IMG/VR virus record: IMGVR_UViG_2663763286_000023
Reading direction: 5' to 3' (one strand)
Origin: a virus
Taxonomy: Duplodnaviria > Heunggongvirae > Uroviricota > Caudoviricetes
DNA: 8,018 nt
Shown here: piece after piece, positions 1 through 8,018 of the stretch
Numbering within the stretch: the stretch's first letter is position 1
Layout: the number at the start of each line of letters is the position of its first letter
Notes under the pieces: model-generated
What the model was told of the DNA's origin: nothing
The model's database searches: none
The model's input: the letters and a program-made list of their open reading frames with translations, nothing else
Translations under genes and position numbers: made by a program

Positions 1-211
1 CGTAATTCAGATGACCCTGTTCGAGCAGGTATTCGCGGATATCAGACAACAGGATACGGTGAACCGCGTTCTTGTCCTTTCTCCGGTAAAGTTGTTTGGT
101 GATCATGAAGTAGTTGGCAATAACGCCTGGTATATCCCTGGTGCTGATACAGGCAGTGTGCTGTTCAATTGCCTCGATCATCTCTTCACGGGTGACTAAT
201 GACGTTCTCAT
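1..211 (-). CDS. 5' part of the antirepressor-like ORF (first 70 codons), running off the window edge; the same gene as 6778-7890 if the unit is circular or tandem, otherwise a paralogous copy
   Basis: ATG at 211-209 on the minus strand, preceded by AGGAGG (complement of 215-220). The open frame continues to position 1 and is identical to 7680-7890. Confidence 0.55.
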   Translation of the reverse strand, partial: MRTSLVTREEMIEAIEQHTACISTRDIPGVIANYFMITKQLYRRKDKNAVHRILLSDIREYLLEQGHLNY

Positions 212-339
212 AGCCCCTCCTGAGCAGAAGCGTTAACAGGGAGGCACCAGTAACTGAGAGAATTGCGCAAATCGGTAGAAAAGCGGGCAGAGAAAATACA
301 GGGAGCATCCGGAAGCTGAGAACGTGCCTCATCTTCTGT
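1..339. repeat. Direct repeat, copy 1 (identical to 7680-8018); both copies are cut by the window edges, giving a period of 7,679 bp
   Basis: Base-by-base reading: 1-339 matches 7680-8018 with no mismatch. Copy 1 starts at the window start and copy 2 ends at the window end, so the true repeat may be longer. Confidence 0.95.
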
Positions 340-862
340 TGGTGCGATAACGAAGTGATAGTGACGTTTCTGGCAGGAGTAAAAGCGCCAGATAAATTCA
401 GGGCGTGCGCAAGGATTGGCATTAACCATAGTTACGGCCTCATGTACAGGTTTAACAACCTGCTACCCGCTGCTAAACGGGTGGCAGGACGTGACGGGGT
501 TAGCAGACTGGCGTACATGAAACCAGCAGGCCGAAGCCTCCCCATCACGCCCCACCATAATTCGGGCGTAATGCGGTTTTACGGACATAAAAATACCGCA
601 ATATCGGAAATCTGCGGTTGTCCGCATGTACATTCAGGCTGCTAAACCCGGTCGCAGAATTTGCTACGACGTAGGAACTATAAGCCTGAACAACAGGAAG
701 ATCAATAGTCTGGCGTCCAATAGTAGTTTATTTGTTCCAATAAATCAAATTTATTAGAGCAATAACAATCTAGTTGAATGTTTCCTCTCTGAGGTTGCAA
801 TGTGCACACTTAGTGTCTTATTTGTATGCACTAATAAATATATTATTTTTAATAATAAATAA

Positions 863-890
863 TTGACAACTGACAAGTGACTTCAGTCAG
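863..890 (+). promoter_or_regulatory. TTGACA hexamer followed by a cluster of TGAC repeats (TGACAAC, TGACAAG, GTGACTTC, then inverted GTCAG); candidate promoter, operator or iteron-like site
   Basis: Read directly from the sequence at the 3' edge of a very AT-rich stretch (about 700-860). No convincing -10 hexamer at canonical spacing. Confidence 0.25.
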
Positions 891-900
891 AATCATCACA

Positions 901-963
901 CGCCCGGTACGGATGGATCCCTTTTCAAATATTCCATGGACGGCACAGTCTGAGTACCGGGCG
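901..963 (+). other. Perfect 10-bp inverted repeat (CGCCCGGTAC at 901-910, GTACCGGGCG at 954-963) with a 43-bp spacer
   Basis: Seen directly. Lies in the presumed 5' leader or upstream region of the 1024-1668 gene. Confidence 0.4.
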
Positions 964-984
964 CTACCTTCAGTTGTATTGCTA

Positions 985-1012
985 AGCCGCCGCTGGTGGC
1001 TTTTCTTTTTTG
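985..1012 (+). terminator. Terminator-like hairpin and U-tract (stem AGCCGCC / GGTGGCT with one G-U pair, then TTTTCTTTTTT) just upstream of the ribosome-binding site of the 1024 gene; possible attenuator
   Basis: Stem 985-991 pairs with 995-1001, followed by a T-rich run 1002-1012, then GGGGGAG and ATG at 1024. Confidence 0.3.
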
Positions 1013-5690: not shown

Positions 5691-6702
5691 TGTTTTGAAA
5701 ACGGTCACTGACCGCTTTTGTCTCTATAGCAATGCTCGAAAAGGTCGCCAGAACGGGCGACAGTATGTATTAAGCGCGGTAAAGACCATGCTTGAAAGCA
5801 AGGAAACTCAGGAAGGTTTACGCCTTGGTGAGCTTTTCGGCTATTACGGTCACGGTCGCCGACAGCTGACCGGCAAACTGGAAGTACCAGAAACCAGCGT
5901 GATCATGGTGGAAGGTCGCCCGGTCGTAATCGACAATGTTCCAGCGTGCCGCACAGTGGCTATATCTGTTGACGACAACGGCATCGTTACCCATACACAG
6001 GAAATTCTTAACACAGAGCCGGGTAAAATTGTCGCCGCGATGATCGAAAGCCGAGCTGGTGGCTGGAGCTGGGACACTGGCGGGCGTGAGTCCGGGAAAA
6101 TCGCTGTAACCACCAGCTTCCATGGTGTGGATTATGTGACAACGCCGAACTATATCAGTCTGGATCATCCTGCCAGCGCCGGAATGTTTGAAAGCGCGGA
6201 TTCTAAATCTCTACTGGCAGAGTCCCTGGCGGCGCATGGGTACTCCGACGAGTCAGTGCAGGCAGTTATATCCCATTACGGCAAAATGGCTGAACTGGAA
6301 ATGATGGTGGAGGCGACAGAGCGTACGGCAGAACTGGAAACCGCACTACTCGAAAGCCAGGGCCGCCACCTCGAAGCAATGGCCAAGATCGCAGATGCTG
6401 AAGCGCGAATCGCTTTGCTGGAGCAAACAGCGGGTATCCGCGATGATGTGCTGGCAGCGATGCAAGACGAACTGGATAACCTCCCAATCTTCGTCTCCGC
6501 CGCCCAAAAAGACGCATTCCGCCTCAAAGAACCTGGTGATGCAAAAATCGTTGCCACACTTTTCGAATCTCTGATCAAAGTTGGCGCACGCAACTTGCCT
6601 GTCACCAAGAAACTTAAGGAAGTTCCGCAAGCGGCTAACGTCCAGGCACCGCGTGAGACAAGCATCATCACGTTTAATAATTCAATCAATCCGTTTAATT
6701 GA
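5683..6702 (+). CDS. Putative head scaffolding or prohead-protease protein, 339 aa, with an Ala/Glu/Leu-rich predicted coiled-coil C-terminal third; translationally coupled to the portal gene
   Basis: ATG at 5683 overlaps the portal stop (ATGACTGA, 8-bp overlap) and is preceded by AGAGGGA. The C-terminal region [46 protein letters not shown] is typical of scaffold coiled coils. A weak DHPASAG resemblance to the P2 gpO DDPASLG region is from memory only. The first in-frame ATG at 5653 lacks a ribosome-binding site. Confidence 0.6.
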
Positions 6703-6733
6703 CCACCAAAAATAACCCCGGCGGCTGCCGGGG
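6702..6733 (-). terminator. Rho-independent terminator for minus-strand transcripts (antirepressor gene): stem CCCCGGC / GCCGGGG with loop GGCT (6716-6733), followed on the minus strand by a U-tract
   Basis: Perfect 7-bp GC-rich stem. The plus-strand A-tract ACCACCAAAAATAA (6702-6715) reads as UUAUUUUUGGUGGU after the hairpin on the minus strand. Confidence 0.65.
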
Positions 6734-6747
6734 TATCTGAAATCACT

Positions 6748-6775
6748 GGCGGCCGAAAGGCCGCCTTTTTAATTT
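6748..6775 (+). terminator. Rho-independent terminator for the portal-scaffold operon: stem GGCGGCC / GGCCGCC with GAAA tetraloop, followed by TTTTTAATTT
   Basis: Perfect 7-bp GC stem at 6748-6754 and 6759-6765, GNRA-type tetraloop, T5 run at 6766-6770; 46 nt downstream of the stop at 6702. Confidence 0.8.
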
Positions 6776-6777
6776 AA

Positions 6778-7890
6778 TCACTCAGCCGCTACAGGCTTTA
6801 ATAAACCTGCATCGAGCAGTTTACGCGTCAACCACTGCTGGCCTTTACCCGTTAATTGGGGCGTCAGCCGTATCTGGTAACCATCTTCATCATCCAGCAC
6901 CACTTCTTTCACCGTGAAATACCCGGCGTTGATGTATTGCTGGAACGGCACATTTTTACGTCCACCGGACGCTATCAGGATGCCGTTCCCCCGTAACCAG
7001 GCAAACAACGCGTTTTGCTTAAGCCCAACAACCTTTGCAAAATTTCCAATCAGGATCCCCTTGGCCCCTGATACCCGGTCGGCAAAATCGACTTTAGGGG
7101 CGGCGGCCACCAGCTGCTGATTTAGCTGGTGGGCTTTCTGTTCCAGAAGTTGCTTTTGTTCAGCCAACTCGGCAGCCAGGCGCAAAGCTTCGGGAAGCGT
7201 CTGAGGGATTGCGACCGGTTGCTGTTCTTTTTGCCGGAAGTAGCTGTCTTCCAGTTTTTCAAAGAATGCCCATGCTTCATTTGTGTCCACGATCTTAGAC
7301 ATGCGTGCAGCGCCGCGCTCTGTCCAGAGTGTAAGGCTTCTGGCGTTCTTACCAACAGAGTAACTTCCGGTTACTCTGTTCTTAAATTCTCTTAATTTTA
7401 AACCAGTTAGAAGAAAGTAATGCTTACCTTCTTCAAAGCGGTCAAGGTTGCGAGACAAATTGTTGCGAATATTGGCTTCATCGACCCCATACCCTCTAGC
7501 AAGAGTTTCGGTTGTTACGACACGTACTCCCTGCCATTCCAGAACGGGAATTTCATCCGGCTGATTCTGAACAACCACCAGTTCCGATTCCTGAACTGAA
7601 GGTGCATGAATTTTTTCTGATTTAACGTTAGTTGCTTTCATTCTGTGTGCCTCCTTGCGTGCTTCGGCTGCGACGGTTGCGTAATTCAGATGACCCTGTT
7701 CGAGCAGGTATTCGCGGATATCAGACAACAGGATACGGTGAACCGCGTTCTTGTCCTTTCTCCGGTAAAGTTGTTTGGTGATCATGAAGTAGTTGGCAAT
7801 AACGCCTGGTATATCCCTGGTGCTGATACAGGCAGTGTGCTGTTCAATTGCCTCGATCATCTCTTCACGGGTGACTAATGACGTTCTCAT
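6778..7890 (-). CDS. Phage antirepressor (ORF6N/Bro-N-like N-domain plus KilAC/Ant C-terminal domain) with an 83-aa N-terminal extension; 370 aa from the upstream start, 287 aa from the internal start at 7641
   Basis: ORF6N-like segment VVTTETLARGYGVDEANIRNNLSRNLDRFEEGKHYFLL...LTLWTERGAARMSKIVDTNEAWAFF. KilAC-like segment ILIGNFAKVVGLKQNALFAWLRGNGILIASGGRKNVPFQQYINAGYFTVKEV...GYQIRLTPQLTGKGQQWL. Both in-frame ATGs have strong Shine-Dalgarno sequences: AGGAGG 5 nt before 7890, AAGGAGG 8 nt before 7641. Stop TGA at 6780-6778. Confidence 0.85.
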   Translation of the reverse strand: MRTSLVTREEMIEAIEQHTACISTRDIPGVIANYFMITKQLYRRKDKNAVHRILLSDIREYLLEQGHLNYATVAAEARKEAHRMKATNVKSEKIHAPSVQESELVVVQNQPDEIPVLEWQGVRVVTTETLARGYGVDEANIRNNLSRNLDRFEEGKHYFLLTGLKLREFKNRVTGSYSVGKNARSLTLWTERGAARMSKIVDTNEAWAFFEKLEDSYFRQKEQQPVAIPQTLPEALRLAAELAEQKQLLEQKAHQLNQQLVAAAPKVDFADRVSGAKGILIGNFAKVVGLKQNALFAWLRGNGILIASGGRKNVPFQQYINAGYFTVKEVVLDDEDGYQIRLTPQLTGKGQQWLTRKLLDAGLLKPVAAE

Positions 7891-8018
7891 AGCCCCTCCT
7901 GAGCAGAAGCGTTAACAGGGAGGCACCAGTAACTGAGAGAATTGCGCAAATCGGTAGAAAAGCGGGCAGAGAAAATACAGGGAGCATCCGGAAGCTGAGA
8001 ACGTGCCTCATCTTCTGT
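7680..8018. repeat. Direct repeat, copy 2 (identical to 1-339)
   Basis: Same comparison as copy 1. Contains the first 70 codons, ribosome-binding site and upstream region of the minus-strand antirepressor ORF. Confidence 0.95.

Follow-up and report, generated by a model that had tools for sequence, protein, structure and literature searches.

The viral record IMGVR_UViG_2663763286_000023, an 8,018-nucleotide (nt) stretch of DNA assigned to the Caudoviricetes and called here, in its whole length, the window, carries the same 339 bp at both of its ends. It is very probably a repeat-unique-repeat draft contig of a P1-like phage-plasmid of about 95–100 kb belonging to the Punavirus lineage, and not a 7.7-kb circle. 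Plasmids of this kind are common in Shiga-toxin-producing Escherichia coli (STEC). The two ends lie in paralogous immunity modules of the P1 immI type, designated A (between cra and mat) and B (between pro and lyz), and the apparent 7,679-bp "unit" is the spacing of these modules rather than a circular molecule. The immI region of P1 (C4, icd and ant) and the gene order of that phage are textbook knowledge.

The original prediction, made from the letters of the window, had offered a circular molecule written past its origin, a tandem duplication and an assembly overlap as sources of the identical ends. The evidence favours the case that it had set against these three, namely a dispersed direct repeat. 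Its advice that the topology be settled before the genes are interpreted was sound.

The contig would have arisen as follows. In the source plasmid two immI modules, each composed of C4, icd and ant, would lie in direct orientation 7,679 bp apart, and gene conversion would have erased the differences between them over about 436 bp at the icd/ant junction. A tract of 436 bp exceeds the typical length of a short read. The assembler would presumably have extended the unique middle into the repeat in both directions and halted at the path forks, leaving a contig whose two ends are the same. Observed directly, as described below, were the embedding in linear DNA between unique flanks, the right-hand fork and the gene content; the two-module layout of the source strain and the behaviour of its assembler are what we infer.

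Linear context in P1-like phage-plasmids

Matches to the window were sought among 20,395 E. coli records, 72,556 plasmids (PLSDB) and 50,697 phages. The window is 96–99% identical to P1-like phage-plasmids of E. coli of about 90–100 kb, many of them from STEC strains, in which the layout is c1 - cre - cra - [ant-icd-C4, A] - mat - EAL - AraC - darB remnant - prt - pro - [ant-icd-C4, B] - lyz - ssb.

The decisive case for a linear topology is contig AAXEVU010000054.1 (25,339 bp; L038/L044) of another assembly, referred to below as the sister contig. It holds all 8,018 bp of the window, ungapped and at 100.000% identity. On one side it continues through the remainder of ant(A) into cra, cre and c1, and on the other through B-type icd and C4 sequence into a fragment of an insertion sequence (IS). 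In the finished 98-kb plasmid p99_1145-3 (L001), our reference for the two-module layout, the whole window is again one linear stretch (L001 6939–14957, 99.19%); the two ant-icd-C4 modules lie in direct orientation 7,680 bp apart, and module A adjoins cra-cre. The further embeddings were these:

L036: 99.93% identical to the window; a 129-kb contig with the same linear layout
L045: 99.86% identical to the window; same linear layout, plus 12 similar places
L047: 99.85% identical to the window; same linear layout, the contig being present in 3 samples
L048: 99.53% identical to the window; same linear layout in a 10-kb contig

In each of these independent assemblies (L038/L044, L036, L045, L047, L048 and p99_1145-3) the DNA of the window is linear and lies between unique flanks. 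A 7,679-bp circle, as the original prediction had entertained, does not agree with the unique DNA that lies outside both copies of the repeat in the sister contig, in p99_1145-3 and in contigs of 10–129 kb. Embeddings of 99.2–99.9% identity occur in finished or near-complete P1-like phage-plasmids of 92–129 kb. Sequences 99.2–100% identical to the window occur in plasmid prophages of about 90–100 kb with c1, cre and the P1 backbone, and the P1 backbone order was found in all ten contigs of 62–98 kb that encode the same Mat protein. The identity and order of prt, pro and mat are those of a segment of a P1-like genome, as in plasmids of 92–100 kb. All matching records with good coverage measure 80–171 kb, and among the E. 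coli, PLSDB and phage records searched there was no closed record of about 7.7 kb.

An IS3-family element lies about 0.6–0.9 kb past module B (L038 19–225; L048 9385–10227), at the place where other plasmids have lydE/lyz. It is probably a further reason for contigs ending there in the lineage of the window. In another plasmid kilA and repL, the P1 lytic replicon, follow directly downstream of the ant gene at the A position (L046 1598–4529), and the module beside mat in this case looks like the canonical immI-kilA-repL block.

The identical ends

On recomparison, positions 1–339 and 7680–8018 agreed at 339 of 339 bases, as the original prediction had reported; at the offset of 7,679 there were zero mismatches anywhere, and chance cannot be the source of a 339-bp identity. 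The prediction had also recognized that each copy is cut exactly by a window edge. Both are cut there because the window is an entire contig: its reverse complement is the complete JXWD01000090.1 (L039; 8,018 bp) from draft assembly GCA_000948825.1. The repeat takes in the initial 211 nt of ant together with the terminal 132 nt of icd.

Positions 1–339, no strand: repeat copy 1, in immI module A; exact identity with 7680–8018
Positions 7680–8018, no strand: repeat copy 2, in module B; 5' end of ant(B) and 3' 132 nt of icd(B)
Positions 7583–8018, no strand: full A/B identity tract of 436 bp; an exact repeat in L038/L044

Copy 1 maps to module A of p99_1145-3 (L001 6939–7277, 100%) and corresponds to the right-hand 339 bp of the tract over which A and B are identical. 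In the sister contig this tract of 436 bp reaches 97 bp to the left of window position 7680 and stops at the base beyond 8018. The right-hand window end is the last base that A and B have in common: the first base past 8018 diverges in all seven B-position copies examined, which read CGGTGCAATAAC as against TGGTGCGATAAC at window position 340. Since the right-hand end falls exactly on the point of divergence, it marks a fork in the assembly graph, and it is at this fork that copy 2 is cut. The source genome would therefore also have a B-type flank, lying outside the contig. When the two ends are compared with the limits of A/B identity, the right one coincides exactly, and the left one lies 97 bp inside the 436-bp tract.

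Contigs with a false "direct terminal repeat", derived from unresolved genomic repeats, are a general assembly artefact. The window resembles them in its repeat-unique-repeat form, in having one end at a fork and in being linear in better assemblies; it differs in its left copy, which falls 97 bp short of the full identity tract.

Alternative explanations

Several observations weigh against a contig bounded by two immI modules. A contig that runs from fork to fork should show 436 bp at both ends, yet the left copy has 339 bp where the sister tract has 436 bp, and in none of 54 module copies of the fetched loci was there a divergence at window position 1. The two-module layout of the source strain would be that of the sister sequence, from which, being identical, it is taken. 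Moreover, two short drafts, L040 (7,639 bp; assembly GCA_053508065.1) and L041 (7,520 bp; also L050; assembly GCA_015518325.1), have the order pro - ant(B body) - repeat - icd(A) - mat, a junction of the type expected of a circle or a tandem duplication. Both are near-complete circular permutations of the unit with one copy of the repeat, their ends being 40 and 159 bp apart, respectively.

The missing 97 bp may be due to the assembler (an odd k of 97 is plausible, and 436 − 97 = 339), or alternatively they may reflect a private difference in the ant(A) of the source. In the latter case the repeat of the source would truly measure 339 bp, with the difference situated just to the left of window position 1. 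We consider this variant of the repeat-bounded contig rather unlikely. It would account for the 97 bp without invoking the assembler, and the alleles of these modules are highly mosaic; however, 0/54 of the sampled copies differ at that position and the source otherwise equals L038 over all 8,018 bp. A third module near c1, or another allele, forking at the left edge was rejected on the basis of the 0/54 copies.

The permuted contigs bear on whether the unit (U) might have been duplicated in tandem through homologous recombination of the direct immI modules, to give A - U - hybrid module - U - B. Two independent short contigs, L040 and L041, run across the hybrid junction, the fork at the right-hand end is equally compatible with such an arrangement, and an identical direct repeat of 436 bp suffices for unequal exchange by RecA. 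Against this, the junction pro-module-mat was sought as one contiguous place and was present in 0/5,426 finished E. coli genomes. It was missing also from IMG/VR, the JGI metagenomes and the GTDB representatives, where the lone pattern match, in IMG/VR, was a different ant allele without the pro flank; the gapped probe used for the junction was partly unspecific, a longer A-type tract being present in the B copy of L036. Furthermore, in L038, which matches the window at 100%, the region was assembled as a single linear copy. The four short contigs from the NCBI pipeline (L040–L043) all start or end in a stretch of about 30% GC, window 2178–2840, which suggests a systematic coverage drop-out there in short-read libraries. 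As all four are broken in this stretch, the middle segment is split, leaving a repeat with two paths in and two paths out, and a swapped join across it is the likely origin of exactly the L040 and L041 contigs. The break of both in the same AT-rich zone, followed by such a join, explains them without duplication. Sister contigs that are identical or nearly identical to the window here (L038, L043 and L049) resolve the B side correctly. A tandem duplication thus appears improbable.

A free 7,679-bp circle written past its origin, whether excised through A x B recombination or maintaining itself as a mini-plasmid, is more improbable still. The identical contig ends speak for it, as do L040 and L041 as near-complete circular permutations of the unit. 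The unit has neither a replication initiator nor a recognisable origin, however, and an excised circle should therefore be diluted out. No closed record of such a size was present in the E. coli, plasmid or phage collections searched. In true circular contigs overlaps of the size of k derive from the k-mers of the common short-read de Bruijn assemblers, and an overlap of 339 bp is longer than the k-mer lengths in common use. The position of the right-hand end on the very base of A/B divergence implies a second flank in the same genome; were a circle linearised arbitrarily, we would put the odds of this coincidence at roughly 1 in several thousand. Lastly, the identical sequence is linearly embedded elsewhere, and the junction is not the only context of the repeat, which in L038/L044 has distinct flanks on both sides.

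One might also suppose that the immI modules recombine at appreciable frequency in some isolates, duplicating the unit in tandem or excising it as a 7.7-kb circle with prt, pro and mat. The permuted contigs L040 and L041 are a hint of such recombination, to which we otherwise give little credence. If it did take place, it would provide a P1-like phage-plasmid with a reversible switch acting on the copy number or loss of its portal and head-processing genes.

Gene content

The features recognized in the window, apart from the repeats, are the following.

Positions 1–211, minus strand: ant(A), 5' fragment of 70 codons; the remainder lies beyond the contig end
Positions 208–429, minus strand: icd(A), cell-division inhibitor of 73 amino acids (aa); open reading frame; phrog_1426; "Icd-like" in RefSeq plasmids
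Positions 477–562, minus strand: C4 antisense RNA of module A; Rfam RF01695, 71.7 bits (gathering score 45)
Positions 631–683, minus strand: a1/b1 target sites of the C4 RNA; Rfam RF03163, 53.2 bits (gathering score 46.7)
Positions 877–1668, plus strand: mat, P1 maturation control protein; tblastn 87% to P1 Mat and 98% to P1 isolate OP279344
Positions 1722–2411, minus strand: EAL-domain protein, a putative cyclic di-GMP phosphodiesterase; Pfam EAL, E = 6e-20
Positions 2648–3382, plus strand: AraC-family regulator, YdeO/GadX-like; Pfam HTH_18 and HTH_AraC
Positions 3763–3906, minus strand: darB remnant, a methyltransferase pseudogene; annotated as an incomplete S-adenosylmethionine-dependent methyltransferase at L001 10701–10844
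Positions 3981–5690, plus strand: prt, P1 portal protein; nucleotide match to P1; phrog_1497 portal
Positions 5683–6702, plus strand: pro, P1 head-processing protein; same P1 match as prt; "head processing protein" in RefSeq
Positions 6778–7890, minus strand: ant(B), complete antirepressor of 370 aa; Pfam ORF6N and ANT

The original prediction proposed that, on a circle, the partial reading frame at 1–211 and the antirepressor gene at 6778–7890 would be one gene. The fragment at 1–211 is instead the 5' end of the paralogous ant(A), the rest of which lies outside the contig, and the sister contig continues it into a full Ant of 370 aa, 94% identical to the Ant of the window.

Similarity to P1 begins at window position 3763. 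From there to 6738 the window is 98.2% identical at the nucleotide level, over 2,976 bp, to positions 17093–20068 of P1 (NC_005856), covering the end of darB, prt and pro. The supposed scaffold gene of the original prediction is pro, which specifies the head-processing protein. The mat gene has alternative starts called at 913 and 1024. This gene had at one point stood as "hypothetical" and as the possible seat of a hidden replicon, which was rejected upon its identification as P1 Mat. The unit contains only C4, icd, ant, mat, the EAL and AraC genes, the darB remnant, prt and pro, with no replication initiator or origin-type gene among them, nor does it hold a complete set of virion and packaging genes. 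That a portal gene and the supposed scaffold gene should occur without terminase, capsid, integrase or Rep, which had seemed unusual, ceases to be puzzling in a fragment of a P1-like genome of about 95 kb.

Between mat and the darB remnant lies an island of low GC content (about 31%; window 1722–3382) composed of the EAL and AraC-type genes. The EAL protein is PdeH-like, its NCBIfam match (PRK11596, 93 bits) being under the cutoff, as is that of the AraC-family regulator to YdeO (152 bits). Neither gene gave a PADLOC match as part of a defence system. The island occupies the res-mod site of P1, where related plasmids have SIR2, RelA/SpoT, MBL-fold or PIN genes, which makes this site a cargo hot spot.

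Paralogous immunity modules

In an immI-type module a C4 RNA and its a1/b1 targets precede icd and ant. This order is seen in window 208–683 (icd, C4 and a1/b1), which together with ant makes a complete immunity module of this type. The icd(A) gene and the start of ant overlap by 4 nt. The Icd proteins of modules A and B are identical and the Ant proteins are 94% identical. Typing at sites diagnostic for A and B revealed that ant(B) of the window has the B type as far as 7582 and the A type from 7619 on; the exact ant(B) protein was found at the B position in L034, L036, L037 and L038. A 65-nt probe for the hybrid ant had as its only match in IMG/VR the canonical immI module of another plasmid (96%), from which it follows that ant alleles are mosaic.

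The length of the exact A/B tract depends on the lineage: 200 bp in p99_1145-3, 249 bp in L045 and L047, 436 bp in L038/L044, 531 bp in L048 and 724 bp in L036. Such variation is as would be expected of gene-conversion tracts of differing extent, that is, of repeated conversion. Contigs with the 249-bp tract read through the region; the lineage with 436 bp yields many short contigs. Module B is present or absent among otherwise similar plasmids.

Plasmid p99_1145-3 has three immI modules, at L001 484–1962 (plus strand), 6037–7621 (minus strand) and 13717–15300 (minus strand), with the additional one near c1. Each has its own C4 RNA, and the three differ in short blocks with a mean column identity of 81%. 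These differences suggest that one phage-plasmid may carry three immunity specificities. A match to the Hfq-binding small RNA isrK was observed just upstream of the c1-proximal C4 (L001 382–459; Rfam 60.8 bits, gathering score 50).

Relationship to known systems

The likeness to the Punavirus phages P1 and P7 is seen in prt-pro (98.2% at the nucleotide level), in Mat (87% at the protein level) and in the order cre-cra ... mat ... darB-prt-pro ... lyz-ssb. These plasmids differ from P1 in having the EAL gene, the AraC-type gene and the darB remnant in place of res-mod, its neighbouring genes and the bulk of darB, and in having two extra modules of the immI type, the first located between cra and mat and the second behind pro. 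The flanking modules of the related plasmids share with P1 immI the C4 RNA, the a1/b1 sites, the 73-aa Icd and Ant (ORF6N + KilAC), all in the P1 order. They differ from it in being extra copies at non-canonical sites, in most plasmids without kilA-repL downstream, and in that the C4 RNAs of the A and B modules differ from each other and from the c1-proximal copy.

According to passages of an article on the P1-like plasmid pSvP1 (Sci Rep 2019, PMC6906374), extra icd-ant homologues occur in the res-mod variable region (RD-1) of P1-like plasmids, an extra ant occurs near c1, and STEC plasmids are the closest relatives of the RD-1 cargo of pSvP1. The hot spot is the same as that described here, and the pSvP1 cargo given in these passages likewise consists of icd-ant homologues and a putative transcriptional regulator (PMC6906374). 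The two-module direct-repeat layout and its effect on assembly do not appear in the passages of that article used here.

Plasmids with exactly this layout are already in RefSeq with standard annotation, and the window is no new kind of element; it is an ordinary locus of a known type of phage-plasmid. It carries a caution, in that identical contig ends, a widely used sign of circularity, derive in this instance from a repeat of 0.34–0.44 kb in a far larger replicon. Were the contig taken as a complete 7.7-kb element, the outcome would be an artefactual "minimal phage-like plasmid" that has a portal gene but no replicon. The P1-like phage-plasmids of STEC can hold up to three paralogous immunity modules exchanging sequence by gene conversion, and such modules flank a variable cargo island together with the portal and head-processing genes.

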